Positions 4,701 through 45,060 of a DNA stretch of 64,000 nucleotides are shown here, piece by piece. Every line of letters begins with the position of its first letter. Within the stretch, counting starts at the first letter, position 1. The position numbers and the translations under genes are program-made. A model generated the notes under the pieces. It made no database searches and was not told the DNA's origin. It saw nothing but the letters and a program-made list of their open reading frames with translations. Origin of the DNA: an uncultured Eubacteriales bacterium (lineage in GTDB: Bacteria > Bacillota > Clostridia > Oscillospirales > Acutalibacteraceae); NCBI GenBank assembly GCA_934462705.1, contig CAKSIH010000001.1:47761-111760 (forward strand). Reading direction: 5' to 3'.

Positions 4701-4783
4701 CCCGGCCGCGAGGCCCTGCAGCTGAAAGCTGCAGAAAATGGCAAAAGCCATTTTGCAAGCAATGCTTGCGGCCTCGCGGCCGG
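4701..4783. repeat. GC-rich cloverleaf repeat, copy 1 (order Hc-Hb-Ha on + strand)
   Basis: Outer stem CCCGGCCGCGAGGCC/GGCCTCGCGGCCGGG encloses three hairpins: CTGCAGC-TGAAA-GCTGCAG, AAAATGGC-AAAA-GCCATTTT and GCAAGC-AAT-GCTTGC. Confidence 0.9.
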
Positions 4784-4838
4784 GTTGCTTTAGAGCTAAA
4801 CTGGTTATATTTAATAATTTACAATTTAAAAATAAGTA

Positions 4839-4867
4839 TTGATTTATCAAAGAAAATGTAATATAAT
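4839..4867 (+). promoter_or_regulatory. Sigma-A-type promoter for SRP RNA/dnaX
   Basis: -35 TTGATT, 17-nt spacer, -10 TATAAT. Confidence 0.6.
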
Positions 4868-4900
4868 TATTAAAGTTAATATAAAAGCAAGGTAGAGATC

Positions 4901-5039
4901 TGTACATTTAAATATGTGAGTGGGTGGGCGCTGCACGGTCTGGCGCCGTGAACCATGTCAGGCGGGGAACCGAGCAGCATTAAGCGGAGTTGCCGGGGGC
5001 GATGCAGTTAGTCTGCTCGCTTGCATATTTAAATGTACA
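4901..5039 (+). ncRNA. ffs: Signal recognition particle RNA (small/4.5S-like form; ends approximate)
   Basis: Helix-8 core ACCAUGUCAGGCGGGGAACCGAGCAGC closely parallels E. coli 4.5S ACCAGGUCAGGUCCGGAAGGAAGCAGC, including the GGAA loop. Closing stem TGTACATTTAAATATG/CATATTTAAATGTACA. Conserved position directly upstream of dnaX. Confidence 0.85.
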
Positions 5040-5099
5040 TAAAGCTGAGAGACAGCATCTGCTTTGCTTTTAGTTTATAAAAGAAAGGGTAAGGATGCT

Positions 5100-6737
5100 A
5101 TGTATCAAGCACTATATAGAAAATACAGACCCAAAACCTTTTCTGACGTAGTGGGGCAACTTCATGTGACTGAGACATTGAAAAATGAGGTCAAGCTTGG
5201 TAGAATAGGGCATGCATATCTATTTATAGGTTCTAGGGGTACGGGTAAGACGACTTGCGCAAAAATTTTTTCAAAGGCGGTTAATTGCAGCAATAATGCC
5301 ATTACCGGTGATCCATGTGGCGAATGTGAGATGTGTCGAAGCATAGAAGATACAGAGGTAATGGATATAGTAGAACTTGATGCAGCCAGTAATAACGGTG
5401 TTAATGATATACGAGAGATTTGTGAATCTGCAGCATTTATGCCGGCAAGGGCGAAATATAGGGTTTACATAATAGACGAAGTACACATGCTTTCTATAGG
5501 AGCATTTAATGCTCTTTTAAAGACACTGGAAGAACCGCCAGCACATGTTGTTTTTATTTTAGCAACGACAGAAGTTCATAAGGTTCCTGCGACAATATTG
5601 TCAAGATGTCAGAGATTCGAGTTTCATAGAATTTCGCCGCAGGACATAGCAGATAGACTTTTGTATGTTGCTAAATGTGAAGGTATTATACTGGAGAAGG
5701 AAGCCGCGTTTCTTATAGCAAGGATATCTGATGGAGCAATGAGAGATGCACTTTCCATACTTGATAAGTGTATTAATGATGGAGACGCGGTTACATTTGG
5801 TGTTGTTACGAAGACTGTAGGGGTAGCAACAAAGGAAAACATATACAATCTTAGCAAGGCGATTGTAGAAAAGAGCTCTGAAGATGCATTAAAAATCATA
5901 GGAAAGCTAAGCGATGAATCCAAAGATATGGCTCGGTTGTGCGATGAACTTATAGGGTACTTTAGAGATTTGATGCTTGTAAAAGTTACAAGCAGTGACC
6001 ATGGGCTTATTTCGGTCAGCAAGGAAGAATATTCTGCTATAAATGAAGTTTCCGATAAAATTGAAATTTGTGAAATAATTAATATTTTAGATACGTTAGA
6101 AACTGCAGCAGAACGGATTTCTAAGGGATGCAACAGTAGGATTGAGTTAGAGCTTGCGATTGTAAAACTTGGTGTTCCGGGAGTTGATTATAGCGCTGAG
6201 TCTATTTCGGTAAGACTTGGAAAACTTGAGAATATTGTAAAATCAGGATTTATGACAGATGTAAAATGCGTGAATGCTTATAAGAAAAAGGAACCTGAAC
6301 CCAATTTAAGTAATCAGGGCAACAGTGCAGAGGCATCCGGGGGGCAAGATCAGAAACAAGATTTTGAAAAAAAGACACCTAATATTGTAAAAACATCGAC
6401 AAACAATTTGCAGGATGAAGCGAAGGAAATGCCAAATTGGTCGGATGTAATAGAGGTGCTGAAAAAGCATTCTAGGACTATGGCAATGGCATTTAAGGGT
6501 TCCAAAGCATATGTAAATGGGGATTTTGTGTTAATTGATTCTAAAAATGATGTAGCATTTGAACTTTTAAGGAAATCGGCTCAAAGAGATAGAATGCGCA
6601 TGGCTATTAAGGAAGTAACAGGCAGGGCCTATAAGCTTGGACCGTACAAAAAAAATAATGAGGAAACTAAAAAGGATCCACTGGATGACTTTTTACAAAT
6701 GGCAAGGGATGCAGGGATACAGGTGGAAGAAAATTAA
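5100..6737 (+). CDS. dnaX: DNA polymerase III subunit gamma/tau
   Basis: MYQALYRKYRPKTF start, Walker A GSRGTGKTT, Zn module CGECEMC, SRCQRF sensor motif. ATG at 5100 preferred over the upstream in-frame start. Confidence 0.95.
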   Translation: MYQALYRKYRPKTFSDVVGQLHVTETLKNEVKLGRIGHAYLFIGSRGTGKTTCAKIFSKAVNCSNNAITGDPCGECEMCRSIEDTEVMDIVELDAASNNGVNDIREICESAAFMPARAKYRVYIIDEVHMLSIGAFNALLKTLEEPPAHVVFILATTEVHKVPATILSRCQRFEFHRISPQDIADRLLYVAKCEGIILEKEAAFLIARISDGAMRDALSILDKCINDGDAVTFGVVTKTVGVATKENIYNLSKAIVEKSSEDALKIIGKLSDESKDMARLCDELIGYFRDLMLVKVTSSDHGLISVSKEEYSAINEVSDKIEICEIINILDTLETAAERISKGCNSRIELELAIVKLGVPGVDYSAESISVRLGKLENIVKSGFMTDVKCVNAYKKKEPEPNLSNQGNSAEASGGQDQKQDFEKKTPNIVKTSTNNLQDEAKEMPNWSDVIEVLKKHSRTMAMAFKGSKAYVNGDFVLIDSKNDVAFELLRKSAQRDRMRMAIKEVTGRAYKLGPYKKNNEETKKDPLDDFLQMARDAGIQVEEN

Positions 6738-6758
6738 TTATATTTAGGAGGAAAAATA

Positions 6759-7106
6759 ATGAAAGCAAGATTACCACAAGGCTACGGAGCTGGTGCAGGA
6801 AACTTACAGCAACTTGCAAGACAGGCTCAAAAAATGCAGGAAGATATGGAAAGACTAACTGAAGAGCTGGAACAAAAGGAATATAGTGCGACCTCGGGAG
6901 GAAATGCTGTAAAAGTTATTGTGACAGGAAAGATGGAAGTACAATCCATTGAAATACAACCTGATGTTGTTGATAAAGATGACATAGAGATGCTATCTGA
7001 TTTGGTGAAGGCAGCAGTAAATGAGGCTTTAAGAATGGCAGTTGATGATAAAAATAAAAATGTAGAACAAGTTTCGGGTGGATTCAATATGCCAGGGTTG
7101 TTTTAA
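6759..7106 (+). CDS. ybaB: Nucleoid-associated protein YbaB/EbfC
   Basis: About 115 aa with the [16 protein letters not shown] pattern. Lies between dnaX and recR. Confidence 0.9.
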
Positions 7107-7108
7107 TT

Positions 7109-7708
7109 ATGGAATATAATGTAGCACCTCTTGCAGCTTTAATCGATAATTTTGAAATGCTCCCGGGTATAGGAAGGAAAACAGCACAGCGGCTTGCATA
7201 TTTTGTTATAAATTTACCTAGAAGCAAAGCAGAGGATTTTTCTAAAACAATCATGGATGCCTATGATAAAATAAAGTACTGCAAAGCTTGCCATAACTTA
7301 ACAGATGAAGAACTTTGTAAGATATGTAAAAGCGAAGATAGGGACAAATCTACTATATGTGTGGTTGAAGACCCCAGGGATGTAATGGCACTTGAACGTA
7401 CAGGAGAGTTTAAAGCGGTCTATCATGTGCTTCACGGAGCTATATCGCCAATGAACGGTGTAGGGCCGGATCAGTTATATATAAAGGACCTTCTGAATAG
7501 AATTCCCAAAGAAAAAATTAAGGAGGTTATCATGGCAACAAATCCAACTGTTGAAGGAGAAGCTACAGCTATGTATATATCTAAACTTTTAAAACCGTTG
7601 GGTGTAAAGGTAACAAGGCTTGCTTATGGGATTCCGGTTGGCGGGGATTTAGAGTATGCCGATGAGGTAACATTATCTAGATCTTTAGAAGGAAGAAGTG
7701 AAATGTAA
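7109..7708 (+). CDS. recR: Recombination protein RecR
   Basis: [14 protein letters not shown] helix-hairpin-helix, C4 zinc finger CKACHNL...CKIC, Toprim [12 protein letters not shown]. Confidence 0.95.
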
Positions 7709-7726
7709 TTTAGGGCTAGCTGCTCA

Positions 7727-7799
7727 GGGCCGCGAGGCGTAAGCGAAGCTTACAAAGGGCTTTGCCCTTTCGCAGCCGTTGGCTGCGGCCTCGCGGCCC
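7727..7799. repeat. GC-rich cloverleaf repeat, copy 2 (order Ha-Hb-Hc)
   Basis: Outer stem GGGCCGCGAGGC/GCCTCGCGGCCC. Hairpins GTAAGC-GAA-GCTTAC, AAAGGGC-TTT-GCCCTTT and GCAGCC-GTT-GGCTGC. Confidence 0.9.
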
Positions 7800-7866
7800 T
7801 GAAGTCAAGAGGTAAGACTAAACTTGGTGAAAAAAGTAGTATAAAAGGCTTCATAAACAAGGACCA

Positions 7867-7895
7867 TTGACTTTGCGGGCAAATAATGATATAAT
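7867..7895 (+). promoter_or_regulatory. Sigma-A-type promoter for smpB
   Basis: -35 TTGACT, 17-nt spacer, -10 TATAAT. Confidence 0.6.
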
Positions 7896-7913
7896 GCAAG
7901 GAGGGCAGCAGTT

Positions 7914-8384
7914 ATGAAAAAGGAATCATTTAAAACTATAGCGCAAAACAAAAAGGCATATCATGATTATTTTATTGAGGATAAACTGGAAGCGGGCATA
8001 GAGTTATTTGGCACGGAGGTAAAGTCTGTAAGGCAAGGCAGGGTGAGCCTAAAAGAAGCATGGTGTTCAATAGTAAAAGGTGAACTTTTTATAAACGGCA
8101 TGCATATTTCGCCTTATGAACAGGGTAATATATTTAATAAGGACCCAATGCGTGTAAGGCGTCTTTTGATGCATAAAAAGGAGATTATGCGACTTTTGGG
8201 ACTAGTTAAGCAAGATGGCTACACGTTGATGCCTTTGTCAATATACTTAAAAGGTTCTTTAGTAAAGGTTCAAGTTGGCCTGTGCAAGGGCAAAAAATTA
8301 TATGATAAGCGCCAGGACATGGCTGAGAAGTCCGCTAAACGTAACATTGAAAGGGCTTTAAAAGAAAGAAGCCGCATAGTTTAA
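7914..8384 (+). CDS. smpB: SsrA-binding protein SmpB
   Basis: [15 protein letters not shown]...GTEVKS motif. tmRNA gene lies about 850 nt downstream. Confidence 0.95.
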
Positions 8385-8410
8385 AACAAAAAGGAAAGGA
8401 CGGTGTTAAT

Positions 8411-9175
8411 ATGATAGATGCTCGCTACGTGAGTGATACAGGTTGGCAACAAACGGAATATTATAAAAGGGTTTGGGCTGGCGATATTTTTCGTGAAGCA
8501 GAGCTAAAAGAAAAGGATATGAAAGAGCTTCAAGGAAAATATGTGACGGTATTTTATGAAAAAGAAGAAAGTGCAGCTAAAGATGTCTTTAATTTAGCAG
8601 AGAAAGAAAGTTTACACATTGCGACGAGTTTAGGCTTTACTGAGCCGTTGAAAATTAATGTTTATGTTTACGATGATCAAGAGACATTTCACTCTAAGAG
8701 GTGCGGGGTTTTAGCAGGACTTCTTGATTTAGGCTGGTATATTGGTGATAATCGTGGAACAGATGTGTTGCTGCTATCTCCTGCAGGTTTTGCCGAAACC
8801 CAACATGGTTATAATTCAATTAAAAATGCTGTTGTGCATGAAATGGTTCACGCATATAATTCAGTTTTAAATTCCAACATGGAATTATGGATGAATGAAG
8901 GTTTAGCAGTGTATTTAGCTAATCAAAAGCCAAGTGAAGATTTTTATAAATATTTTTCATTTCCAAGGTTGTGCCAGTTGCATACAACCAACAATTTAGA
9001 TTTTGAAGGATTTGGTGGGTATCAATTTGCATATAATTTTATTGAGTATTTAACTAAAGAATATGGATTTAAAAAAGTATTGCAACTTGCTAAAAACTCT
9101 AGCTATGAGGATACATTTGGAAAGTCTGAAGAAGAAATTTATAATAATTGGAAAATTACCTTTGCAGCGAAGTAG
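8411..9175 (+). CDS. Putative zinc metallopeptidase (MA clan, Peptidase_MA_2-like)
   Basis: HEMVH (HExxH) followed about 20 aa later by NEGLAVY, a gluzincin-type third ligand. Family call by motif only. Confidence 0.55.
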   Translation: MIDARYVSDTGWQQTEYYKRVWAGDIFREAELKEKDMKELQGKYVTVFYEKEESAAKDVFNLAEKESLHIATSLGFTEPLKINVYVYDDQETFHSKRCGVLAGLLDLGWYIGDNRGTDVLLLSPAGFAETQHGYNSIKNAVVHEMVHAYNSVLNSNMELWMNEGLAVYLANQKPSEDFYKYFSFPRLCQLHTTNNLDFEGFGGYQFAYNFIEYLTKEYGFKKVLQLAKNSSYEDTFGKSEEEIYNNWKITFAAK

Positions 9176-9232
9176 AATGGCAATAAAAAAGCCACCTTTA
9201 AAGCAGCTATAATTTTTAATTTTATAAAATAT

Positions 9233-9584
9233 GGGGATGCAAAGGTTTCGACGGGGATTATAAGCATTAGTAAGCGAGTAGCGGCGCAGACCCGCTATAA
9301 AATCTGCAAACTTTAAAATTAAACGACAATAATACGTTTGAATTAGCAGCTGCTTAAGCAAGCTGCCGTCTTTGTAGAGAGTACCGCGGCTTTACTAAAG
9401 GCGTCGATTAGCGGTGAACGTGAACAAAGGTAAGTTTCGACCTTTGTCATGAACTAGGAACTACCAAATCAAAGAGCCTGTTATTGGGCGCTTTGCTGAG
9501 GGAATTTTAAATCAATAACTATACTCGTAGAAAGCTTTTGTAAGTAGTTTTCGGACAGGGGTTCGATTCCCCTCATCTCCACCA
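9233..9584 (+). ncRNA. ssrA: Transfer-messenger RNA (tmRNA)
   Basis: 5' GGGGATGCAAAGGTTTCGACGGGG. Internal tag frame ...AAC GAC AAT AAT ACG TTT GAA TTA GCA GCT GCT TAA (..NDNNTFELAAA*). 3' tRNA-like GGACAGGGGTTCGATTCCCCTCATCTCCACCA. Confidence 0.95.
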
Positions 9585-9607
9585 AAATAGAATACATCTT
9601 TTGGTGT

Positions 9608-9644
9608 AAAAATAAGCCCGGCCTTAAGGTCGGGCTTATTTTCA
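9608..9644 (+). terminator. Terminator after ssrA
   Basis: AATAAGCCCGG...CGGGCTTATT hairpin followed by TTT. Confidence 0.7.
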
Positions 9645-9742
9645 TATTTATAAAAAAGTAAGAGCGCCAACTTCCGCGAACCTATCGGTTCACTTCCGCT
9701 GGCGCTCCTGAATGAAGACATAATTACCATATTGCAAAGTTA

Positions 9743-9946: not shown

Positions 9947-10046
9947 TGTTTTTTATTTCCCTCCATAAATATTAATATATCTATATTATTTTAAGTTTTT
10001 AAATTTTTATACGAAGAATGATATAAAAATAAATGTTAAGGACTGA

Positions 10047-11429: not shown

Positions 11430-11432
11430 AAC

Positions 11433-13942: not shown

Positions 13943-14725
13943 TTAAATATGCCTGTTAATTTCATATACTTCTTTTAGTCCATGTAAGACTAAGTTTTCA
14001 CATAAAATTACATTGCTTTTACAATGTGGAGCTACTTTAGACGAAAATCCTCCAGTTAATATAATTTTACATTTGTAACCCAAATTTTCATTTATCCTTT
14101 GTGTCATTCCATCAATCATACAGGCAGTTCCATAGATGATGCCTGAACGCATGCTTTCAGAAGTATCTAATGATATTAAATTTTTTGGGGCATCTATGCT
14201 TATAGAGGAAAGTAATGCTGTCTTAGTTGTAAGGGCGTCAAGTGATATTCTTAAACCGGGAATAATACTTCCACCTATAAATTGTTTATGATTGTCAATT
14301 ACAGAAATGGTTGTAGCAGTTCCTAAATCAATAATTATACAAGGTGGTCCATATAGGTTAACAGCAGCAATAGCCCCACAAAGCAAATCTGCACCAAAGT
14401 CTATATGTTTGGAAAATGAAAATTGAGCATTTGCAAATGATTCATTTTTTATAATGAGTGGGGCAACCTTACAAAGACGTATCACAGCATTTTCAATATG
14501 ATGTGTAATAGATGGAACAACAGAGCCTATAACAGCACCAGATATTTCACAATGGTTAATTCCGTAAAGCTGTAAAATTTCATTTAAGTTTACGAAAATT
14601 TGATCTTCTGTAAGATGTCTGTCAGTAAAAATGCGTGAAACAAATTTTAGTTCCTTATTTTTATATCCACCAATAGTTATATTCGTGTTTCCAATATCAA
14701 TGGCAATTATCATTATGTATTTCAT
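13943..14725 (-). CDS. coaX: Type III pantothenate kinase
   Basis: IAIDIGNTNITIG phosphate-1 motif, IIDLGTATT, about 255 aa. Confidence 0.85.
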   Translation of the reverse strand: MKYIMIIAIDIGNTNITIGGYKNKELKFVSRIFTDRHLTEDQIFVNLNEILQLYGINHCEISGAVIGSVVPSITHHIENAVIRLCKVAPLIIKNESFANAQFSFSKHIDFGADLLCGAIAAVNLYGPPCIIIDLGTATTISVIDNHKQFIGGSIIPGLRISLDALTTKTALLSSISIDAPKNLISLDTSESMRSGIIYGTACMIDGMTQRINENLGYKCKIILTGGFSSKVAPHCKSNVILCENLVLHGLKEVYEINRHI

Positions 14726-14787
14726 CCTATGGTATTTTTTAATTTTAGATTAAATATGCTTTAATTTATAATTCAGCTTTATTTAAA

Positions 14788-14871
14788 GCGGCCGCGAGGC
14801 CGCAAGCTTCGCTTGCAAGAATGGCTTTGCCATTCTATCCGCAGCTAAAAGCTGCGGGGCCTCGCGGCTGC
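14788..14871. repeat. GC-rich cloverleaf repeat, copy 3 (Ha-Hb-Hc)
   Basis: GCGGCCGCGAGGCC / GCAAGC-TTC-GCTTGC / AAGAATGGC-TTT-GCCATTCT / CCGCAGC-TAAAA-GCTGCGG / GGCCTCGCGGCTGC. Confidence 0.9.
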
Positions 14872-14893
14872 GTAGTGCATAAAGCAAAAGATA

Positions 14894-16309
14894 TTATTCT
14901 GACCTAAAGAAGGCAAGGGCTGCCTTGTATGCCATATATATGTCTATTTTAGATACGACTTCGAATGGAGCATGCATAGATAAAACAGGAACGCCAAGGT
15001 CAACGACATCAACATTTAAATTAGCCATATACTTAGCGATAGTCCCGCCACCGCCGGCATCAACTTTTCCAAGTTCACCGGTTTGCCATAGAATTTCGTC
15101 TTTTTCTAAAATAGATCTAACCTTGGCCATAAATTCGGCAGATGCATCAGAAGTACCGCCTTTACCGCCGCTACCAGTATATTTGGTTATTACTACTCCA
15201 TTGTTAATAAAGCAACTGTTTGAGGCATCATAAACAGAAGAATAGGTTGGATCAAAAGCAGCGTTAACATCGGCAGACAAGCATTCTGACTTAGTTAATA
15301 CATGCCTATATTCTTGATTATCATTAGCGGATAAATCTGCAATAAAATATCTAAAGAAAGCAGAATTCATACCGGTATTTCCATCGCTTCCGGTTTCCTC
15401 TTTATCAGCTAAAATGGTCATAATAGTGTGTTCAGGAATCTCACTAAAGGTTAAGATTGACATTAAAATTGGATAAGCGCAGACTCTATCATCATGTCCA
15501 TAAGATCCTATCATGCTTTTATCAAATCCGATATCCACAGCTTTATAAGATGGTACCAATTCAAGTTCAGCTGAGATAAAATCATCCTCAATAATATCAT
15601 ATTTTTCATTTAAAAGCTTCATTATATTAAGTTTTACAAGTTCTGATGCCTTGTTATCTCTGAATGGCCTGCTTCCCACTAAGATATTAAGATCTTCACC
15701 CGCAATGGCTTTTTGCAAAGTTTTGGTCATTTGCTCTTTAGCAAGATGTGGAAGCAAGTCCGTAACGCAAAAATGAGGTTCGTCATCAGTTTCGCCCAAT
15801 TTTACATTAACAAATTCACCATTTTTTTTAATGATCTTGCCGTGAAGCGCCAAAGGTATAGCAGTCCATTGATATTTTTTTATGCCGCCGTAATAATGTG
15901 TTTTAAACAGTGCAAGTTCATTTTGCTCGTATAAAGGGTTTGGCTTTAGGTCAAGTCTTGGCGAATCAATGTGAGCAACTGTAATTTTGATTCCCTCTTT
16001 TGTACCCTTTTTTCCTATAATAGAAAAAATTACAGATTTATTTCTGTTTACGTAATAAATTTTATCTCCGGGTTTGTATTTTTTATCTAAATCAAATTCT
16101 TCAAAACCGTATTCCTTTGCAAGTTTAATAGAATAATCCACAGCTTCTCTTTCGGTTTTTGCTTCGTTTAAAAATGTTTTATAATCTTCGCAAAACTCAT
16201 CAGCATGAGCAATTTCAGTGTCTGTTATTTTTAATGCTCCGTTTTTTCTGTTTAAAAATAATTTCTCTTTAAGTATTTCCGTTTCACTTTTTGTTTCTAC
16301 TTTTGACAT
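14894..16309 (-). CDS. M18-family aminopeptidase
   Basis: AHIDSPRLDLKPNP, EETGSDG and HAPFE motifs in M18/M42-like order; 471 aa. Confidence 0.75.
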   Translation of the reverse strand: MSKVETKSETEILKEKLFLNRKNGALKITDTEIAHADEFCEDYKTFLNEAKTEREAVDYSIKLAKEYGFEEFDLDKKYKPGDKIYYVNRNKSVIFSIIGKKGTKEGIKITVAHIDSPRLDLKPNPLYEQNELALFKTHYYGGIKKYQWTAIPLALHGKIIKKNGEFVNVKLGETDDEPHFCVTDLLPHLAKEQMTKTLQKAIAGEDLNILVGSRPFRDNKASELVKLNIMKLLNEKYDIIEDDFISAELELVPSYKAVDIGFDKSMIGSYGHDDRVCAYPILMSILTFSEIPEHTIMTILADKEETGSDGNTGMNSAFFRYFIADLSANDNQEYRHVLTKSECLSADVNAAFDPTYSSVYDASNSCFINNGVVITKYTGSGGKGGTSDASAEFMAKVRSILEKDEILWQTGELGKVDAGGGGTIAKYMANLNVDVVDLGVPVLSMHAPFEVVSKIDIYMAYKAALAFFRSE

Positions 16310-19653: not shown

Positions 19654-19694
19654 AATAATACCTACTTTCAAATAATTTTCTTAGTGCTTTATTA

Positions 19695-19786
19695 TAAGGG
19701 CCGCCGCATGCGCTGCGCGCGGACCCGGGGCATTGAGCCCTGGGCTAGTCAGCCAGTTTCATGGGCTGACTATGCGGCGGCCCTTA
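19695..19786. repeat. GC-rich three-hairpin element, sequence-divergent variant
   Basis: Outer stem TAAGGGCCGCCGCAT/ATGCGGCGGCCCTTA encloses GCGC-TGC-GCGC, CCCGGGGC-ATTGA-GCCCTGGG and TAGTCAGCC-AGTTTCATG-GGCTGACTA. Confidence 0.8.
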
Positions 19787-19816
19787 CATAGCGAGAGGTG
19801 TGAAAAAAGGAAGCTA

Positions 19817-20005
19817 TTAAGGTTCTAAAATGCGGGAAGTAAATTTTTCTGCTTTAGACCGAGAAATTATTATCAGGTGGTTACATTTAAGGCACTGCAG
19901 TTTAAAATCCATACCGACTTTCTTAACCAAAAACTTGTTGTTACCACAAGGATGCAGTTTTTTCATAACTAAAACATTCCCAGTATTAATATTCACGTCA
20001 ATCAC
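19817..20005 (-). CDS. DUF951-family small protein (YyzM-like)
   Basis: 62 aa with KKLHPCG...LQCLKCNH, a four-Cys/His pattern as in DUF951. Confidence 0.6.
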   Translation of the reverse strand: MIDVNINTGNVLVMKKLHPCGNNKFLVKKVGMDFKLQCLKCNHLIIISRSKAEKFTSRILEP

Positions 20006-22882: not shown

Positions 22883-23452
22883 ATGAAAATTTTAATAGAA
22901 ACTTCTGCAAGACACATACATTTGTCTGAAAAAGATTTACAATGCCTTTTTGGTGATGAATATAAGCTGACCAAAAAGAAGGAACTTTCACAACCGGGAC
23001 AATTTGTTTGTTTTGAAAAAGTCAATATTGTGGGGCCTAAAAACACAATTAATGGCGTTTCTGTGCTGGGACCAATTCGGCAAAACACTCAAGTTGAAGT
23101 CTCTTTAACTGATGCAAGAAAGTTAGGAATATCGGTACCGGTTAGGAGATCCGGAAATTTAAGTGGGACACCAGGATGTAAGTTAGTGGGACCTAAAGGC
23201 GAACTTGAAATTGAAAGTGGTGTTATAGCTGCTAAAAGACATATCCATATTAGTACAAAAACGGCAAATGAAAATGGCTTATATGAAAACCAAAACGTTA
23301 TTGTACGAGTTAAAACAGACGATCGGCCATTATTGTTTGGTGATGTGATTGTCCGCGTAAATGATAAGTTTAATGATGTTATGCATATTGACACAGATGA
23401 ATCGAATGCTGCAGGTATATTTAAACCGGAATATGGAGAAATAATTTTATAA
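22883..23452 (+). CDS. pduL: Phosphate propanoyltransferase PduL-like
   Basis: Duplicated SARHIHLS / AKRHIHIS motifs and 189-aa size typical of PduL. Confidence 0.8.
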   Translation: MKILIETSARHIHLSEKDLQCLFGDEYKLTKKKELSQPGQFVCFEKVNIVGPKNTINGVSVLGPIRQNTQVEVSLTDARKLGISVPVRRSGNLSGTPGCKLVGPKGELEIESGVIAAKRHIHISTKTANENGLYENQNVIVRVKTDDRPLLFGDVIVRVNDKFNDVMHIDTDESNAAGIFKPEYGEIIL

Positions 23453-23474
23453 ACTTTAGTTAATTGGTGCTGGT

Positions 23475-23555
23475 GCGGCCGCGAGGCCGCAAGCTTCGCT
23501 TGCAAGAATGGCAATGCCATTCTACCGCAACTTATGGTTGCGGGGCCTCGCGGCC
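23475..23555. repeat. GC-rich cloverleaf repeat, copy 4 (Ha-Hb-Hc)
   Basis: GCGGCCGCGAGGCC / GCAAGC-TTC-GCTTGC / AAGAATGGC-AAT-GCCATTCT / CCGCAAC-TTATG-GTTGCGG / GGCCTCGCGGCC. Confidence 0.9.
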
Positions 23556-23642
23556 AGTAGCTAGAGCATCCCTTAGAGCTCACTAAAGTTTGGATTAACC
23601 ATGAATCACCCCTTTACATATTGTATGTAAAGGGGTGATTCT

Positions 23643-23990
23643 ATGTTTGAAGTTATATTTAGTGTACTATTATTATTTTTAGCATTTATAGGACTAATTG
23701 AAATTTTTCACCTTGTTTCTCTTACTCTGTTTAAAACAAAGAGTAATACCGATTCCCTTGCAGTGATTCCAATGCATGGACACAACGAAGAAGCCGAATA
23801 CGTGCTTAGAAATACTATTTCAAACGTAAGTTGGGTTAAAGGCTCAGGTACAAAAAGAATCATCTGTCTGGATGTAGGCATGGACGAAGAAACCAGACAG
23901 ATTTGTGATATATTGAGTAATGAATATGATTATGTAGATGTATGTACTATTGAGGAGTTTGAAGATTATATTCTTAAAATATCTTCCTAA
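23643..23990 (+). CDS. Hypothetical protein with N-terminal TM helix (115 aa)
   Basis: ORF with a hydrophobic N-terminus. No family recognised. Confidence 0.4.
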   Translation: MFEVIFSVLLLFLAFIGLIEIFHLVSLTLFKTKSNTDSLAVIPMHGHNEEAEYVLRNTISNVSWVKGSGTKRIICLDVGMDEETRQICDILSNEYDYVDVCTIEEFEDYILKISS

Positions 23991-24055: not shown

Positions 24056-25855
24056 TTATTTTGTTTTGTTTTGTTTGCCTGTATTATCGTTTACATTTAT
24101 AGTAACTTGTGGTTGAGCGGGAACGCCGGATTTGGTAGGGGTTGACTTATCGTCATCTGTGGTGGAAGCGTCGGTGGAAGCGTCAGGCTTTTTAGCGTCA
24201 GAGTCAGGGGCATTTTTGTTTATGCCTGCTTTTTCAGAATCATTTTCCTCTTTATTTGGTTCAATTTCCGTAGGTTCTATTGAATTAACTTCTTTCATTA
24301 TCTTAGTAGCGTGAGGAAGCTTAGCTTCAGATGAACTTTTTAGTCTATCCGGTAAAGGCAATACATATTCGAAATCAAATAAAAGTTGAGGGTTATTACC
24401 GTCTGTTGTTATCTGCTCTTGAGATGCCTTATTAAGTAAGGCTGAAAGTTGATCTGCATCATGGGCTCCGTTAAAATTGTTTATGACTAATCTAAAAGTT
24501 TTCTCAGGATTTTGCAGAGATAATCTAGCAATTTCTCCTTTAGTAATGTAATTATCTTGGCAAGCATTAGCTAATTTTGCAAGGACAACAGCTTTCTTTT
24601 TATCATTTTCATCTTTTAATTTTTTAATATCTTGGGCTGTATAATATTTTTGAATTGTACTTAAAGGGGAGTTTACTTTCTTTTTAGTCAAAGTTCTTGA
24701 TTGTCCATTTTTATCATATGTTGTTACTTCTTCAATACAATCATACTCATATGGTTCAAGTTTCTCATTTTTGTGTGCGTCATTTATTCTTTTCTGTTCT
24801 GAATATTCTTTAGTGTAATTAGCTGTAGTAGGAACTGTAAAATTTAAAACAGCTTCTTCATCTTTGTTAGTTAAGACTATACCGTAGTTTATTTTTATAA
24901 AATCTTTTTCGTTCCAAGGAAGAGCATTTTTTAAGCATGATAAAAATGATACTTTAGGCGAATGAACGAATGGAAGGAATTGTTTTAAATAGTCAACAAA
25001 AGTTGGCGTAGGCAAATTAGGACCATGAATATAGAATTTATTAAATTCTTGTGGGTCTTCATTTTTTAATTTTTTATATAGCCATATAAGAGGTTTTTTA
25101 AATTTACCAACCTTTTTTTGAGGAATATCGCGTAATTTTACAGAAACATAACCCCTATCAGAAAAATGTTCTTTTTGTTTTTCATCAAGTTTTAATTGAA
25201 TTTTACCGGTAGTTGAGTAGTAAACGTTACAGTCATTATCAGAAGCGGGGCTGCTTGTAAATTTCGGAGATGTATAATCTTTTTCATAGGTTATAATTGG
25301 AAGAGAATAGCCGACTGCCCCTTTTTCTTCTCTATGTGTATAACCGCCTTTATATTTAGGAATACGGGAACTTAAGTTTGTATCAATTTTTTCTTTTACA
25401 GCAGAAAAAGCTTTATCTGCTACATGAAGTGCAGCGAAGATTCCCACAGCAGAAAAGATAGGGTGATCCCACACTTTTTTACATAAATAAACGTCAGCAC
25501 ATTCTTTTTTTAACTCTTTAAAGAAAAAATTAAATGGAGATGCGGCCGAAGACTTGGTTGAAGACTCGACAAAAGGCGTGGCCGGAGACTCAGTTGAAGA
25601 CTTAACAAAAGACTCTACGAAAGACTCGGCCGGAGACTCAGTTGAAGGCTTAACAAAAGACTCTACGAAAGACTCGGCCGGAGACTCAGTTGAAGACTTA
25701 ACAAAAGACTCTGCCGGCGACTCAGTTGAAGGCTCAACAAAAAACTCGGCAAAAGGCGTGGCCGGAGACTCAATTGAGGAGTTGGCAGAAGCGTAGCTTG
25801 CACAAGGTACAATAAGCATAGTTGATATTAAACCAGCCGAAATAAGTTTTTTCAT
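24056..25855 (-). CDS. Secreted protein with N-terminal tandem repeats and Lys/Asp/Thr-rich C-terminal tail, unknown function
   Basis: Signal peptide MKKLISAGLISTMLIVPCASYASA. Repeats of the SPAESFVESFVK(S/P)STE type. 599 aa, no catalytic motif recognised. Confidence 0.6.
   Translation of the reverse strand: MKKLISAGLISTMLIVPCASYASANSSIESPATPFAEFFVEPSTESPAESFVKSSTESPAESFVESFVKPSTESPAESFVESFVKSSTESPATPFVESSTKSSAASPFNFFFKELKKECADVYLCKKVWDHPIFSAVGIFAALHVADKAFSAVKEKIDTNLSSRIPKYKGGYTHREEKGAVGYSLPIITYEKDYTSPKFTSSPASDNDCNVYYSTTGKIQLKLDEKQKEHFSDRGYVSVKLRDIPQKKVGKFKKPLIWLYKKLKNEDPQEFNKFYIHGPNLPTPTFVDYLKQFLPFVHSPKVSFLSCLKNALPWNEKDFIKINYGIVLTNKDEEAVLNFTVPTTANYTKEYSEQKRINDAHKNEKLEPYEYDCIEEVTTYDKNGQSRTLTKKKVNSPLSTIQKYYTAQDIKKLKDENDKKKAVVLAKLANACQDNYITKGEIARLSLQNPEKTFRLVINNFNGAHDADQLSALLNKASQEQITTDGNNPQLLFDFEYVLPLPDRLKSSSEAKLPHATKIMKEVNSIEPTEIEPNKEENDSEKAGINKNAPDSDAKKPDASTDASTTDDDKSTPTKSGVPAQPQVTINVNDNTGKQNKTK
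25553..25795. repeat. Imperfect 48-nt tandem repeat inside the CDS 24056..25855
   Basis: Unit GGCCGGAGACTCAGTTGAAG(A/G)CTTAACAAAAGACTCTACGAAAGACTC recurs back-to-back with shortened and variant copies at the flanks. Confidence 0.8.
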
Positions 25856-39604: not shown

Positions 39605-39616
39605 ATATATCACCTT

Positions 39617-40309: not shown

Positions 40310-40437
40310 TATATCACCATCCTTTAGATTTTAATATCATACAAAAATTTATAACTATATTATACAACAAATGTGCATTTTTGAAAAGTATTCAAATTTA
40401 AATTTAAATGATATAATTAAAATGGGTGATAAGTTTT

Positions 40438-41403
40438 ATGAAAACAATAGTTGTAGGAAAAAATGATGCGAACCAGAGAATAGATAAATTTTTATCTAAG
40501 TCGTTCAAGAGTTTACCAATTGCATTGATGTACAAGAAAATAAGAACGAAAGATATTAAGGTAAACGGAAAAAGGTGCAAGCCAGATACAAGATTGGAAG
40601 ATGGAGACGTTATAAGCATATACGTGAAAGATGAATTGCTGGAGCAGTCTTACTATAAATATGAGTTTCTAAAAGCACCGAATAATCTTATTATAGCATA
40701 TGAGGATGATAATGTCATTCTTGTAAATAAACCACAGGGGCTTATAGTTCATCCGGATGAAAATTATCAAGCCGATTCACTCATATTAAGAATTCAACAT
40801 TACCTATATGACAAGAAGGAGTACAATCCTTCAGATGAAAATTCATTTGTTCCGGCACTTGCGAATCGCATTGACAGAAATACTCAAGGAATTGTAATTG
40901 CAGCTAAGAATGCGTCTTCCTTAAGGATTCTCAATAGCAAAATTAAAAATAGAGAGTTAAAGAAGTTTTATTTATGTATGGTGCATGGAAAATTTGCATC
41001 TAAAGAAGGTACACTTAAGGCTTATCTTGAAAAAGACGAGAATAAAAATAGAGTGTATATACATAAAAATCCTAAGAAAAATGCAAAAACAATTTTGACC
41101 AAATATAAGGTCATTAAAGAAAAGGGCAATTTTAGCTTGCTTGAAATAGAACTTTTAACAGGAAGGACGCATCAAATTCGTGCACATATGGCATATTTGG
41201 GGCATCCTTTAGTTGGTGACGGAAAATATGGGAAGAATTTTTTAAACAAGGTAACAGGATATACCAAGCAAGCCTTATATTCCTATAAGCTCATTTTTGA
41301 TTTTGAAGAAGATGCTGGAATTTTAAATTACTTAAATAAGAAAGAAATATTGCTGCCAGTAAAACAATTTATGGAGGATTTTGAAAATTTAAAAGAATAT
41401 TAA
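40438..41403 (+). CDS. RluA-family pseudouridine synthase
   Basis: S4-like N-terminus, catalytic ANRIDRNTQGIVIAAK (HRLD-type) and TGRTHQIRAH motifs. Confidence 0.85.
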   Translation: MKTIVVGKNDANQRIDKFLSKSFKSLPIALMYKKIRTKDIKVNGKRCKPDTRLEDGDVISIYVKDELLEQSYYKYEFLKAPNNLIIAYEDDNVILVNKPQGLIVHPDENYQADSLILRIQHYLYDKKEYNPSDENSFVPALANRIDRNTQGIVIAAKNASSLRILNSKIKNRELKKFYLCMVHGKFASKEGTLKAYLEKDENKNRVYIHKNPKKNAKTILTKYKVIKEKGNFSLLEIELLTGRTHQIRAHMAYLGHPLVGDGKYGKNFLNKVTGYTKQALYSYKLIFDFEEDAGILNYLNKKEILLPVKQFMEDFENLKEY

Positions 41404-41458
41404 AAATTTTTTCTTGAAGTTAAGGTCGGATTTATAGTATAATTTAATTATTAATTAT

Positions 41459-41535
41459 CCGCCCGTAGCGAAGCTGGATATCGCAGCAGATTCCGATTCT
41501 GAAGGCCGGGGGTTCAAATCCCTCCGGGCGGGCCA
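41459..41535 (+). tRNA. tRNA-Arg (anticodon CCG)
   Basis: Hand-folded cloverleaf. Acceptor CCGCCCG/CGGGCGG, D stem GCGA/TCGC, anticodon stem with one G.A mismatch, loop TTCCGAT, T arm GGGGG-TTCAAAT-CCCTC, encoded CCA. The C1-G72 pair is unusual. Confidence 0.75.
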
Positions 41536-41611
41536 TCGGAGAGTCTCAGAACGCAAATTGCGTATGGGGCATTTTCTTTTTGATAGAATAATTGCTCACA
41601 AATAAAAGGCA

Positions 41612-41650
41612 AACCTGTATACTGTTAAAATAGCAGTATACAGGTTTTTA
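41612..41650. terminator. Bidirectional terminator
   Basis: AACCTGTATACTG-TTAAAATAG-CAGTATACAGGTT followed by TTTTATTTT. Confidence 0.75.
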
Positions 41651-41667
41651 TTTTGAAAACTATGATT

Positions 41668-42360
41668 TTAAAACACTCTAAAATGTGCAGCGTTCATTTT
41701 TTTTCTTTTTCCTAATTTGGGCTTTGAGTTTCTTATATATAACAGTGAAAAAAGTACAACCCCTAAAACAGAAAGCACGATTAAAGAAATGCTAATTCCG
41801 AAAACAAGTGGCTCATTATTAAAAAAATTAAGTGTTTTCTGATTTTCTTTTATAAAATTAAAATCGTCAGTATTTGAGTTATCATTTAACTCAATTTTCC
41901 AATCATCAGGACTTAAGGTTTCCTCGACAAATGAGTTATCATCAGTTGAGGCATCGGTTTGTTTGCCCAAGGCAATATCACTATTTTTAGAGGGAGTATT
42001 TGCTTGTACACTTTTATTTTGTGAAGAAGTATCCTTTTTTTGCTGATTTTGCTTTTTGATTTGCTGATTTTTATTTTTTTCAGAATCATTGGAATTTGAT
42101 TTTTGACTCTTTTCAGGTGGCTTTTTTTCAGGTGCTTTATTTGTACCTGCTTTTTTTTGATTAGTATTTACTTGATTTGAACCTTTACTGGATTTAGAAT
42201 TGTCCTTTGCGCTGGCTGGCGTGTCATTTTTTTTAGAACTTTGTTGCTTTGTAGATGAAGAAGAATTTGTATTTACGTTTGCAGCATAAGAAAAGTTTAA
42301 AGGCTGAAGGGTTAAGCAAAGTAAAAGTCCTAAGCCTAGAAATAATATTAATTTTTTCAT
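41668..42360 (-). CDS. Secreted low-complexity (Ser/Asn/Lys/Gln-rich) protein with C-terminal TM anchor
   Basis: Signal peptide MKKLILFLGLGLLLCL..., long polar low-complexity region, hydrophobic helix and basic tail at the C-terminus. Confidence 0.5.
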   Translation of the reverse strand: MKKLILFLGLGLLLCLTLQPLNFSYAANVNTNSSSSTKQQSSKKNDTPASAKDNSKSSKGSNQVNTNQKKAGTNKAPEKKPPEKSQKSNSNDSEKNKNQQIKKQNQQKKDTSSQNKSVQANTPSKNSDIALGKQTDASTDDNSFVEETLSPDDWKIELNDNSNTDDFNFIKENQKTLNFFNNEPLVFGISISLIVLSVLGVVLFSLLYIRNSKPKLGKRKKMNAAHFRVF

Positions 42361-42604
42361 ATTTTACATCCTTTTTATTTATACTATATTTAAATAATAC
42401 CACAAAAATATCAATAGATTCAAGTTTTCATTTTTTATGTAAAAACGGGGGAAATTATAGGCAATATCGAATAAATGGACTATCCATAATAATCTTATAA
42501 TTGTTCAAAATATTACAGCGAGTTAAGACAAGCTATCTTAAAAATTACTGATATACTTTGATTTGAAATACCAACAATGCCGTGTAAATAGGATGGTGCT
42601 TTAA

Positions 42605-44929
42605 ATGAGAGTATTACAACAGGAAACAAAAAAATTTGCTCAGAAAGTAATTTCATCAAGAACGTTAAAAGTAATTAGCAGAAATTTAATATGTTTTTTA
42701 ATAGCAATATTGGTTTCACGTGGAAGGTTATTTAGCGATTACCTGCCATATGGAATAGCCCTTTTAGCGGCAGTTCCATACAATTTAATATGGACATCTT
42801 TGTTGGGATGCATTATTAGCTATATTTTGCCGGCTGAAATTAATATAGGCATGCGGTACATATCAACAGCAATTTCTGTTTGTGCAATAAGATGGACATT
42901 TAACGACTTGCCTAAAATTAAAGAGCATGTATTATTTTCACCAATAATAGCGTTTGCTAGTACAATAATTACGGGAGTGGCTGTGAATAAATCAGGTTTA
43001 GCTGACTTCAATTTGATTCTTCTATATTTAACTGAAGCAATGATTGCCGGAGTATCAGCATATTTTTTTAAGGAAACATTTGATACTGTTGAAAAAAAGG
43101 GGAGACTGATTTTAAGTCAGATAGAGCTTGCGTATTTGTGCTTCAGTTTTTTTGTATTGATATTAACGCTGTCAGAGATAACAATCGGCTACCTTTCGCT
43201 TGGCAGAATTGTAAACATGCTTGTAATTCTATTTTGCTCAAGATATTTGGGCGTCATGGGAGGAAGCATAGCAGGGATAACAGCTGCAGCAGTTTTGGGG
43301 TTATCGTTTAAAAACCCTACATATATACCCGTGGCGTATGCTTTTGGAGGCCTTCTTTCAGGGATACTTTCAGGTTTTGGAAAATCAATTTGTACAGCAT
43401 TTTTTTTCCTTGTAAATATAATTGTAGCAGTGCAAAGTGATAACCCTGTTATAATTTTAACCTGTATTTATGAATCTTTAGCAGCTTCCATAATCTTTAT
43501 GTTTTTACCAGATTACTGGGGAAGTATATTTTTAAGCGTGTTTTATTATCCTTCCGATAGTAATACGAGATCTGCCTACCTAAAAGATGCAATTACAATG
43601 AAGTTAAATTTTGCATCTGGAGCTCTAATGAATATTTCAACGGCTATTAATAAAGTCACAGAAAAGTTAACAGAAATAAATAAGCAAGATATAACATCTG
43701 TATATTTAAAGTCAATCGGTTCAGTTTGTAACAATTGCGGACTTAGAGTGTTTTGCTATGAAGCTAAAAAAGATGATACTATTTCTGCTTTTGAACATGT
43801 TACAGATGCACTTAAATCTTCGGGTGAGTTGGAGGTAAAAAATTTTAATAAAGAATTTATAAAACGTTGCTGCAAAATAGACGAGCTATCTAAAGCAATT
43901 AATCTATACTATAAAGACTATGCTATTCAAACCGTAGCAAAACAGCGAATTGATGAGGTTAGGGGTTTTATATCAGAACAATTTGCAGACATAGGAAATA
44001 TACTTTACGATATTTCAAAGGAGTTTGAAACATATGATAAGTTTGATGATGATTCAGCCCAGAGGATAATGATAATGTTGAAAAGGCATGATATTATACC
44101 AATGGACGTAAGCTGCAGAGTAAATAAATTTGATAGAATGACAGTAGAGATAGGCATAATAGGTAAGGAAAGAAGGCAAATTGAGAAAATACCACTGCAA
44201 GGAGAAGTGTCAAAATGCTGTGCAAGGGCAATGGATTTACCTGTTATAACAGTAGCACAAGAAAAAAGCAAGATAATGCTTTGCGAGCAGGCAGCTTTTG
44301 AAGTTAAAATAGGTGTAGCACAACATGTGTATAAAAATGGAACCCTTTGCGGTGATAGCTATAAATATTTTAATGATGGCATGGGAAGAATGGATTTTAT
44401 TTTAAGTGATGGTATGGGTACGGGCGGAAGAGCTGCGATTGAAGGATCAATGTCTTGTGAAATAATGAAGCTTTTAATGCAGTCCGGAATAGGGTTTGAA
44501 ACGGCTGCCAAACTTACCAATTCTGCTTTAATTGTAAAATCTGAGGATGAATTTTTATCAACTCTAGACGTTTTGTGCGTTGATATGTTTACAGGTAAAA
44601 TAGAATTTTTAAAGGCTGGAGCACCGTTTACATTAATAAAGAAAAAAAACGAAATAAGGAAAATAGATTTACCGTCATTGCCAATTGGAATATTAAAAGA
44701 TATAGAATTTAAAACGTTGAGCGAAAAACTTGAAAGTCACGACAAGGTATTGATGTTTTCAGATGGAGCATTGTATAAAGAGGACTGGATATGTGATGAA
44801 TTAAATGGATGGAGTAAAGAGGATGCACAAGTCTTTGCAGAAAGAATTGTGGATAAAGCAGCTAAAATGAGAGAATCTGAAAGTGATGATGACATAACAG
44901 TTATAGCAATACATTTGGTAGAACGGTAG
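42605..44929 (+). CDS. spoIIE: Stage II sporulation protein E (PP2C phosphatase)
   Basis: About 10 N-terminal TM helices and a C-terminal PP2C domain (GDSY...SDGMGTG...FSDG...DDITV); 774 aa. Confidence 0.9.
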   Translation: MRVLQQETKKFAQKVISSRTLKVISRNLICFLIAILVSRGRLFSDYLPYGIALLAAVPYNLIWTSLLGCIISYILPAEINIGMRYISTAISVCAIRWTFNDLPKIKEHVLFSPIIAFASTIITGVAVNKSGLADFNLILLYLTEAMIAGVSAYFFKETFDTVEKKGRLILSQIELAYLCFSFFVLILTLSEITIGYLSLGRIVNMLVILFCSRYLGVMGGSIAGITAAAVLGLSFKNPTYIPVAYAFGGLLSGILSGFGKSICTAFFFLVNIIVAVQSDNPVIILTCIYESLAASIIFMFLPDYWGSIFLSVFYYPSDSNTRSAYLKDAITMKLNFASGALMNISTAINKVTEKLTEINKQDITSVYLKSIGSVCNNCGLRVFCYEAKKDDTISAFEHVTDALKSSGELEVKNFNKEFIKRCCKIDELSKAINLYYKDYAIQTVAKQRIDEVRGFISEQFADIGNILYDISKEFETYDKFDDDSAQRIMIMLKRHDIIPMDVSCRVNKFDRMTVEIGIIGKERRQIEKIPLQGEVSKCCARAMDLPVITVAQEKSKIMLCEQAAFEVKIGVAQHVYKNGTLCGDSYKYFNDGMGRMDFILSDGMGTGGRAAIEGSMSCEIMKLLMQSGIGFETAAKLTNSALIVKSEDEFLSTLDVLCVDMFTGKIEFLKAGAPFTLIKKKNEIRKIDLPSLPIGILKDIEFKTLSEKLESHDKVLMFSDGALYKEDWICDELNGWSKEDAQVFAERIVDKAAKMRESESDDDITVIAIHLVER

Positions 44930-44974
44930 GCTTTTAAATGTTTTGCAGCTTTGTATTGCACTTTTTGCCTGAGA

Positions 44975-45060
44975 CGGGCCGCAAGGCCCCGAAGCTTTAA
45001 AGCTTCGGTAAATGGCTTTCTAAGCCATTTTGCAAGCTTCGCTTGCGGCCTTGCGGCCCG
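44975..45060. repeat. GC-rich cloverleaf repeat, copy 5 (Hc-Hb-Ha)
   Basis: CGGGCCGCAAGGCC / CCGAAGC-TTTAA-GCTTCGG / AAATGGC-TTTCTAA-GCCATTT / GCAAGC-TTC-GCTTGC / GGCCTTGCGGCCCG. The outer stem carries a compensated G>A / C>T change. Confidence 0.9.

Follow-up and report, generated by a model that had tools for sequence, protein, structure and literature searches.

A family of GC-rich four-way-junction palindromes, possibly of REP/REPIN type, in the intergenic DNA of an uncultured human-gut Acutalibacteraceae-like bacterium

Repeats of the repetitive extragenic palindromic (REP) and REPIN type are textbook elements of proteobacteria and, to our knowledge, have hardly been described from the Clostridia predominating in the human gut. 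In Escherichia coli, REPs have a known secondary role as stabilisers of mRNA 3′ ends. A REPIN consists of two inverted REPs and a spacer, forms hairpins in single-stranded DNA (ssDNA) or RNA, and is mobilised by RAYTs, the REP-associated tyrosine transposases (PMC3337134). According to one report, REPIN-RAYT systems pass mostly by vertical inheritance and last in single lineages for millions of years (10.1101/2022.05.22.493013), and group 1 RAYTs are present in Clostridia too (PMC5581495). In this study, we analyzed a window of 64,000 nt (forward-strand positions 47,761-111,760 of contig CAKSIH010000001.1, assembly GCA_934462705.1) from an uncultured Eubacteriales bacterium of the Acutalibacteraceae, which carries a family of GC-rich intergenic elements, each with an outer stem enclosing three hairpins. 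With about even confidence, we regard them as a lineage-specific, REP/REPIN-like family of extragenic palindromic DNA repeats in an uncultured human-gut genus of the Oscillospirales (Acutalibacteraceae-like).

The likeness to REP, BIME and REPIN elements lies in short, GC-rich, extragenic palindromes that are repeated, occur in both orientations and have a lineage-specific consensus (PMC3337134, PMC5581495); here, seven such elements were found in about 76 kb, all of them intergenic. Also shared are the confinement to transcribed space past genes or between convergent or co-directional genes, the persistence at orthologous sites in related species, and the layout of two inverted conserved motifs around a spacer with folding as ssDNA or RNA, the motifs here being inverted cores of 10-12 nt. 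Differences concern the spacer, which here has 50-85 nt and three perfect hairpins giving a four-way junction instead of one hairpin, and the pairing, which is essentially perfect here whereas REP stems are imperfect. Furthermore, the elements have no conserved GTAG-type tetranucleotide, no RAYT was found in the loci examined, and the host is a low-GC Firmicute, a group for which the searched literature yielded no REP/REPIN system. Nor did it yield a description of the element itself.

Miniature inverted-repeat transposable elements, or MITEs, such as Correia of Neisseria, ERIC/IRU and bcr1 are likewise small, intergenic and non-autonomous, with terminal inverted repeats, and can undergo processing or stabilise transcripts, but they have defined termini, target-site duplications and a cognate insertion sequence (IS) transposase (PMC10969869, PMC3184786). 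In the elements of the window, the extensions past the core are variable and unrelated to each other, and neither a target-site duplication nor a parent IS was found in the loci examined. BOX of Streptococcus pneumoniae and RUP/SPRITE are also modular intergenic repeats of a low-GC Firmicute, with stable predicted structures and co-transcription with their neighbours. They have conserved end modules and a variable middle, the BOX modules A, B and C being sequence-conserved blocks of 45-59 nt with a varying number of boxB; unlike the elements described here, BOX has no fixed three-hairpin junction and forms no GC-rich islands, and the two share no sequence similarity. Integron attC sites are similar in their inverted conserved ends, their variable palindromic centre and their position just downstream of an open reading frame (ORF), and are recognised as folded ssDNA by structure, not sequence. 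However, attC sites need extrahelical bases and imperfect pairing and stand in cassette arrays beside intI, whereas the present elements show perfect pairing and lie downstream of dispersed housekeeping genes (recR, spoIIE, pduL, aspS, miaB-like). An identity as attC was therefore rejected, and no integrase was found near the copies, the neighbours being housekeeping genes. The mobile GC clusters of yeast mitochondria are GC-rich palindromic islands dispersed in very AT-rich intergenic DNA as well, but belong to another domain of life, form much shorter single hairpins without a four-way junction and have no sequence relation to the elements. What is new here is the combination of four-way junction, near-perfect pairing, invariant core and self-correcting hairpins in low-GC gut Clostridia; in kind, the element is an extragenic palindromic repeat, and most likely a relative of a known phenomenon. 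The family would extend the REP/REPIN phenomenon to human-gut Clostridia.

The five copies known from a preceding sequence-only reading (c1 to c5, here called type I) were found where it had placed them, with the stem extensions included in the positions of Table 1, while the lengths of 80-86 nt given there had to be corrected to 73-96 nt. Six type I elements and one of a second type (type II) lie in the window and adjoining sequence, which together cover about 76 kb, and the core is absent elsewhere in the window. In total, 19 copies were examined, 17 of type I from at least five lineages and two of type II; where 13 distinct elements are mentioned, orthologous copies are left out of the count. 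Each unit consists of two inverted cores of about 10 bp, GCCGC[G/A]AGGC (type II: GGCCGCCGCAT), flanking a spacer of exactly three small palindromes, a number that holds for 17/17 type I and 2/2 type II copies. Beyond the core, paired extensions of 0-9 bp vary between copies in length and sequence. The 12-mer of the outer stem (with at most one mismatch) occurs 20 times, corresponding to ten arms on two strands, compared to 0.19 times in dinucleotide shuffles, and nowhere else in the 64 kb. Also, the elements stand out by a GC content of 0.54-0.66 from a background of 0.29-0.39, in agreement with the initial impression of GC-rich repeats in an AT-rich genome. A sequence-agnostic scanner, set to accept a perfect inverted 8-9-mer with its arms 30-140 nt apart, no fewer than three hairpins inside it and 75% or more of the bases in pairs, returned exactly the known elements of the window and nothing more, and found none in 16 kb of L147-L149 beyond the window (L numbers are our handles for the loci compared) nor in more than 100 kb of related genomes.

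All five copies fold on both strands into the outer stem with three hairpins (Ha, Hb, Hc) that the sequence-only reading had described, with energies of -55 to -66 kcal/mol (z-scores of -8 to -10.3) with RNA parameters and of -39 to -45 kcal/mol (z-scores of -8.7 to -10.9) for the same fold with DNA parameters. A covariance model built from them recovered them at 70-101 bits. In the six distinct type I copies, 95% of the cells are standard pairs, and both-sided changes occur in 12 of 34 pairs compared to 5.2 ± 1.6 in column shuffles, the observed value being reached in 0 of 500; when the 3′ partners were slid by 1-3 columns, pairing fell to 30-50%. The paired differences listed initially for Ha, Hb, Hc and the outer stem (G/A) are all present, and the covariation check proposed with them thus gave an excess over shuffles, although DNA palindromes would give the same signal. 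Covariation tests of the R-scape type, widely taken as proof of a functional RNA, can accordingly be passed by strand-symmetric DNA palindromes. Loops are mostly of 3 nt and vary freely, as had been noticed, up to replacement or inversion between orthologues, and only 0-8 bases per element are unpaired outside the loops.

The pairing is equal on the two strands. In the 13 distinct elements, the counts of Watson-Crick and G-U pairs were 505 and 9 on one strand compared to 504 and 6 on its complement, so that G-U makes up 1-2% of the pairs on either strand, and the folding energies of the strands are equal. The copy c3 follows a gene on the minus strand, the M18 aminopeptidase gene, and is therefore transcribed as the reverse complement, where its single wobble turns into an A-C mismatch. 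Loops are inverted between paralogues (Ha with ttc vs gaa), and the same was seen in an ordinary hairpin at 23603-23641, where ATTGT stands against ACAAT, the exact reverse complement, in L152:1713-1751; hairpin flipping is therefore general in these genomes. This latter hairpin is terminator-like (CACCCCTTTACAT-ATTGT-ATGTAAAGGGGTG) and lies just ahead of an ORF at 23643-23990. Template switching and inversion within quasi-palindromes are an established mutational mechanism by which one-sided changes become paired without selection on each pair. Strand symmetry, loop inversions and mirrored indels point to DNA palindromes whose arms template each other, and because both strands pair equally with few G-U pairs, loops invert and indels are mirrored, the paired changes need no selection at the RNA level. 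The orientation is mixed as claimed before, c1 and c5 running opposite to c2, c3 and c4; relative to the upstream gene, two of the six type I copies point one way and four the other, and the order of the hairpins flips accordingly. Both orientations could, however, arise via inversion between the identical inverted core arms, and mixed orientation is therefore no proof of insertion either way.

Relatives within the genus carry orthologous copies at several sites. The c4 site is occupied in L151 and L152/L153, the PduL proteins of which are 86-87% identical to that of the window (pduL DNA identity 87-90%, third positions 73-80%), while the intergenic flanks differ by about 18% between the window and the L151/L152 lineages. 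Between c4 and the L151/L152 copies, no change was found in the 39 nt of both core arms and Ha; both hairpin loops are replaced, and the changes in Hc are all paired (CCGCAAC/GTTGCGG to CCGCAGCC/GGCTGCGG to CCGCAGTC/GACTGCGG). In L152, Hb carries a single change that is uncompensated. The sites of c3 and of the type II element are occupied in L154 (L154:893-989 and L154:5854-5962), where RF1 is 95% and PduL 76% identical to the window and third codon positions are 57-60% identical, synonymous sites thus being close to saturation. In L154, the 20-nt core of c3 is identical, three consecutive pairs of Ha have changed, the loop of Hc is inverted (aaa vs ttt), the Hb loop resembles an inversion plus one substitution, and the stem extension is swapped for an unrelated yet complementary 8-mer. 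In the type II copy of L154, 41 nt comprising the outer stem and the first hairpin (H1) are identical, with third positions there at 57%, an equal insertion is present in both arms of H2, and H3 is compensated. In the outer stem of the c2 orthologue in L144 (RecR 94% identical), two transitions lack compensation, a rate close to that of the flanks.

The probability of finding 39 unchanged positions at 18% divergence is about 4e-4, and that of 41 unchanged positions at 42% divergence about 2e-10. Since core, Ha and H1 show no change at 18-42% divergence, they are kept far beyond neutral expectation, and the sequence is constrained besides the structure. The proposal that structure and not sequence is under selection consequently holds for the retained pairing and the free loops but fails for the 10-bp core GCCGC[G/A]AGGC, which is invariant in 17 of 17 type I copies from at least five lineages. 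This contrast between an invariant core and drifting but paired hairpins is a natural experiment that separates structural selection from self-templating palindromes.

Outside the close relatives, the same core (GCCGCGAGGC/GCCTCGCGGC) was found in two other metagenome-assembled genomes (MAGs) of the Acutalibacteraceae (L047, L069, L111), around three unrelated perfect hairpins. At least six such elements lie in the 8-kb loci of these two MAGs, 10-90 nt past the stops of housekeeping genes (aspS, miaB-like), and the hairpin sets form subfamilies, two of which are common to both MAGs with paired differences. When the collection was scanned by the two outer-stem arms, three low-GC loci were informative among the 112 matches listed, and three hairpins together with 80% or more pairing occur in none of the 109 high-GC loci among these listed matches. 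The window and L144 carry an element at the recR-smpB site, which is empty in L132, L135, L138 and Caproiciproducens (L145), so its occupancy is lineage-restricted. The RecR proteins of the relatives with an empty site are 76-79% identical, their spacers are too diverged to set insertion boundaries, and the nearest relative (94%) is filled. No element was present in the 12-20 kb loci of the more distant relatives (L132-L138, L145-L146), among which L132, with 61% PduL identity, represents a more distant lineage. The scaffolds matching the window come from human-gut metagenomes of Hadza and other cohorts, and RecR of the window is 74-75% identical to RecR of Caproiciproducens and Candidatus Gallacutalibacter; judged from this RecR identity and the gut scaffold matches, the host is placed as an uncultured Oscillospirales/Acutalibacteraceae-like sporeformer. 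The elements also break and mis-join metagenome assemblies of this species. The same-species contigs L159, L160, L163 and L164 end inside c4 or are mis-joined through it, with an N-gap in L163 joining the left flank of c3 to c4 and, in L164, the left half of c4 being continued by the right half of c3.

Searches with Rfam 15 gave no match for any copy, neither at the gathering score nor at E<=1, the only gathering matches being tmRNA, SRP (signal recognition particle) RNA and tRNA; this agrees with the sequence-only reading, in which the element could not be placed in a named RNA family. A query of outer stem plus Ha against JGI metagenomes and IMG/VR returned only unrelated marine GGCCGCAA tandem motifs. 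In these marine viral or metagenome contigs (L119:7524-7600, L120, L121-L131), tandem GGCCGCAAGGCCGCAAGC motifs are followed by a GCAAGC-gaa-GCTTGC hairpin identical to Ha; the likeness appears to be coincidental, and the stretches do not fold into the junction. With the core arms as query, IMG/VR yielded three GC-rich chance matches in which the fold is absent, and blastn of one copy against PLSDB plasmids and INPHARED phages yielded no match.

With respect to genes, members of the family are scattered and keep to transcribed space, either 3′ of a gene or between cistrons. The distance from stop codon to element is 10-90 nt for all 13 distinct elements, which stand in co-directional or convergent spacers, and the 15-45 nt measured for c1-c5 agree with the initial placement just past stop codons. 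Of the spacers of at least 30 nt in the window, 22 are co-directional and sum to 2861 nt, 7 are convergent (652 nt) and 8 are divergent (1094 nt); elements are present in five of the co-directional and one of the convergent spacers but in no divergent one, although divergent spacers make up 24% of the intergenic length. The copies c1 and c2 lie at the ends of transcription units, before independent strong promoter matches (of SRP RNA and smpB, respectively), and no canonical terminator was found between c1 or c2 and the following promoter. The elements thereby mark transcription-unit ends that have no canonical terminator.

We therefore favor, at the even confidence given above, a REP/REPIN-like DNA repeat family, which is strand-symmetric and has a strongly constrained core and hairpins that stay perfect as their sequence drifts. 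A REP/MITE-like dispersed element was one of three candidate roles named in the sequence-only reading and fits best among them. The unit is predicted to fold into a nearly perfect four-way junction as ssDNA or as RNA from either strand. Its hairpins would be kept perfect mainly by arm-to-arm templating, via template switching or inversion, and not by selection on each RNA base pair. The invariant core is putatively recognised by a protein responsible for copying or maintaining the elements, the obvious analogue being a RAYT-like single-strand (HUH/Y1) transposase, and in folded ssDNA the three hairpins would bring the two core arms together. Judging from the REPs of E. coli, the co-transcribed junction (-55 to -80 kcal/mol as RNA) probably blocks 3′-to-5′ (and 5′-to-3′) exoribonucleases and would weakly insulate neighbouring transcription units. 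Such a barrier to exonucleases may be why elements just past stop codons are tolerated or retained. If this protective effect on transcripts is true, the elements are compact, extremely stable RNA/DNA junction modules.

Several results weigh against a REP/REPIN-like family. The check for target-site duplications suggested at the outset was negative, with no consistent direct repeat beside the copies, and a GTAG-type flanking tetranucleotide is not conserved: GTAG stands beside c3 and c4 only and is absent from the c4 orthologues. In general, the similarity of the flanks does not exceed that of shuffled controls. For this reason, a CTAAAnTTTGG motif near c1, c2 and c4 was dropped. The gene tables and Pfam scans of about 150 kb of related loci contained no Y1_Tnp, other transposase or candidate partner gene, and between the closely spaced copies of L111, no partner gene was found but only small secreted lysine/arginine-rich ORFs without Pfam hits. 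Ten same-species assemblies are identical at c4 and thus show no recent insertion polymorphism among them, and the last 19 kb of the window plus the next 9 kb are free of copies. We infer mobility, and there is no clean filled-versus-empty pair among the close relatives; moreover, retention at orthologous sites with free loops and constrained stems equally fits a functional cis-acting RNA. The strict count of three hairpins is left unexplained by selfish-repeat and cis-RNA models alike.

Such a cis-acting RNA is the rival that survives best, and we consider it possible, though rather unlikely. The elements would then be non-mobile, structured parts of 3′ untranslated regions or intercistronic spacers serving as stabiliser, processing site or insulator and kept by selection on the RNA fold, and an RNA-binding protein or a nuclease would bind at the core. 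This explanation accounts well for elements that are always co-transcribed with the upstream gene near its stop, that are retained at orthologous sites across species with stems invariant or compensated and loops free, that give strong covariation statistics, and that, in the case of c1 and c2, stand at expected 3′ ends without another terminator. It accounts poorly for the mixed orientation (2 vs 4) and the reversal of hairpin order with it, and for the strand symmetry, since G-U pairs are as rare (1-2%) on one strand as on the other, the c3 wobble becomes a mismatch in the transcript, no loop motif is strand-specific and the transcribed strand does not fold better than its complement. In addition, symmetric indels and loop inversions indicate templating at the DNA level, sites are empty in more distant relatives of equal gene order, and hairpin modules are common to different loci and MAGs.

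Only tentatively do we put forward that the elements represent a previously unrecognised class of structure-specific genetic elements of gut Clostridia in which a dedicated putative protein reads the four-way junction with its invariant 10-bp core. As the reader, one could imagine either a transposase or recombinase that is specific for junctions or hairpins and has no relation to RAYTs, or a factor that binds RNA, and the three hairpins would be a functional requirement, for example by setting the geometry of the core, and not a historical accident. If true, this would give low-GC Firmicutes their first described REPIN-like replicator system or, alternatively, a new RNA module of 3′ untranslated regions.

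It is improbable, in our view, that the elements are functionless relics of a palindromic MITE family which decay or drift neutrally and remain paired only through self-correction by template switching. Loop inversions, symmetric indels and strand symmetry agree with such relics, and so do the uncompensated changes in the c2 orthologue of L144 (two transitions at about the flank rate) and in Hb of L152. However, self-correction keeps pairing and not sequence, and leaves unexplained both the lack of any change in 39-41 nt at 18-42% neutral divergence and the recurrence of the 10-bp core around unrelated hairpins in distinct MAGs; also, useless palindromes of such stability would be expected to be deleted.

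Ordinary Rho-independent terminators that are incidentally branched are a very improbable explanation. A GC-rich structure right past stop codons would suit a terminator, partial T-rich tails follow c1 (TTGCTTT) and c3 (TTTAAAT), and a terminator consensus scan flags the 3′ arm of c1, but nothing else. Yet a T-run after the stem on the transcribed strand is missing in five of six type I copies (c2, c4, c5 and the upstream copy have not even a partial tail), c5 is followed by a separate terminator-like hairpin, and the type II element lies within a co-directional gene pair 41 nt before the prfA start. Elsewhere, this genome uses canonical terminators with a hairpin and a T-tract, for example at 9609-9642 after tmRNA. 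With five of six copies failing the U-tract test, the terminator role considered in the sequence-only reading did not stand, and an intrinsic terminator was rejected. A family of tRNA-like or other trans-acting small RNA genes, to which the four-way junction of about 80 nt could hint, is hardly credible and was rejected, given that ARAGORN calls only tRNA-Arg and tmRNA and no element, that the Rfam tRNA model agrees with it, that the outer stem has 12-20 bp, that features of D-, T- or anticodon loops are absent, and that no own promoter or terminator was seen in these strand-symmetric elements.

Table 1. Positions and features of the elements in the window and of the copy next to it (bits: score with the type I covariance model).
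Element	Position	Strand	Neighbouring genes	Stem and hairpins	Bits
Type I, c1	4701..4784	-	20 nt past stop of 131-aa ORF 4285-4680 (+); SRP RNA promoter 4839-4867 and SRP RNA gene 4922-5021 downstream	outer stem CCCGGCCGCGAGGCC/GGCCTCGCGGCCGGG; order Ha-Hb-Hc on - strand	101.5
Type I, c2	7724..7802	+	15 nt past recR stop (7708); smpB promoter 7867-7895 downstream	outer stem TCAGGGCCGCGAGGC/GCCTCGCGGCCCTGA; hairpins GTAAGC-gaa, AAAGGGC-ttt, CGCAGCC-gtt	
Type I, c3	14788..14871	+	22 nt past stop of M18 aminopeptidase gene (14894-16309, -); coaX (13943-14725, -) on the other side		
Type I, c4	23475..23555	+	22 nt past pduL stop (23452)		
Type I, c5	44975..45060	-	45 nt past spoIIE stop (44929); convergent with tatD	core variant GCAAGGCC/GGCCTTGC	
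Type I, upstream copy	L113:2021-2116		~0.8 kb upstream of window start on identical metagenome scaffold; 66 nt past stop of trypsin/PDZ protease gene	20-bp outer stem	78
Type II	19695..19786	-	30 nt past stop of DUF951-like ORF (19817-20005, -); 41 nt before prfA start (19653, -)	15-bp outer stem TAAGGGCCGCCGCAT/ATGCGGCGGCCCTTA; hairpins GCGC-tgc-GCGC, CCCGGGGC-attga-GCCCTGGG, AGTCAGCC-...-GGCTGACT	26.9

Among the elements of Table 1, c1 has 37 Watson-Crick pairs, no G-U pair and all junction bases paired. The first 50 nt of c4 are 96% identical to c3. The type II element has the same architecture as type I but an almost unrelated sequence, only AGGGCCGC at the stem base being in common; its RNA energy is -65.9 kcal/mol, and that of a longer stretch (19685-19795) is -68.6 kcal/mol (z-score of -7.0). 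The copy c4 is nested in an additional 10-bp AT-rich inverted repeat, AAACTTTAGT...ACTAAAGTTT (23451-23591). Likewise nested are c3 (14770-14895), though more weakly (GCTTTAT...ATAAAGC), and the orthologues of c3 and c4; elements may have landed in, or grown from, the loop of an older hairpin.

Further features were noticed beside the copies and elsewhere in the window. A perfect 16-bp AT-rich inverted repeat (TGTACATTTAAATATG...CATATTTAAATGTACA) at 4901-5039 surrounds the SRP RNA downstream of c1 (Rfam match 4922-5021) and may be a precursor processing stalk. The terminator-like hairpin that follows c5 at 45093-45128 (GGCGCCGCGCGATATCGCGCGGCGCC) is GC-rich and perfect, is flanked on each side by a T/A-rich tail and probably terminates transcription in both directions. 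In the locus L111 (5058-6213), three small ORFs with signal-peptide-like N-termini (MKKLICVLA...) and tails very rich in lysine, arginine and glutamine lie between and after elements. A coding tandem repeat at 25490-25791 with a periodicity of 12/36 nt (family D1, seven overlapping copies) is located within the ORF 24056-25855 (-), the product of which has 599 aa and no Pfam hit. Finally, the region 52427-61200 looks like a precursor cluster of ribosomally synthesized and post-translationally modified peptides (RiPPs) or bacteriocins: a peptidase-C39/ABC transporter and another ABC transporter (52427-56812) precede a tandem run of about ten small ORFs, which have Nif11-type leaders and an LDAVAGG-like double-glycine motif that is conserved (repeat families D2-D5 and D7).

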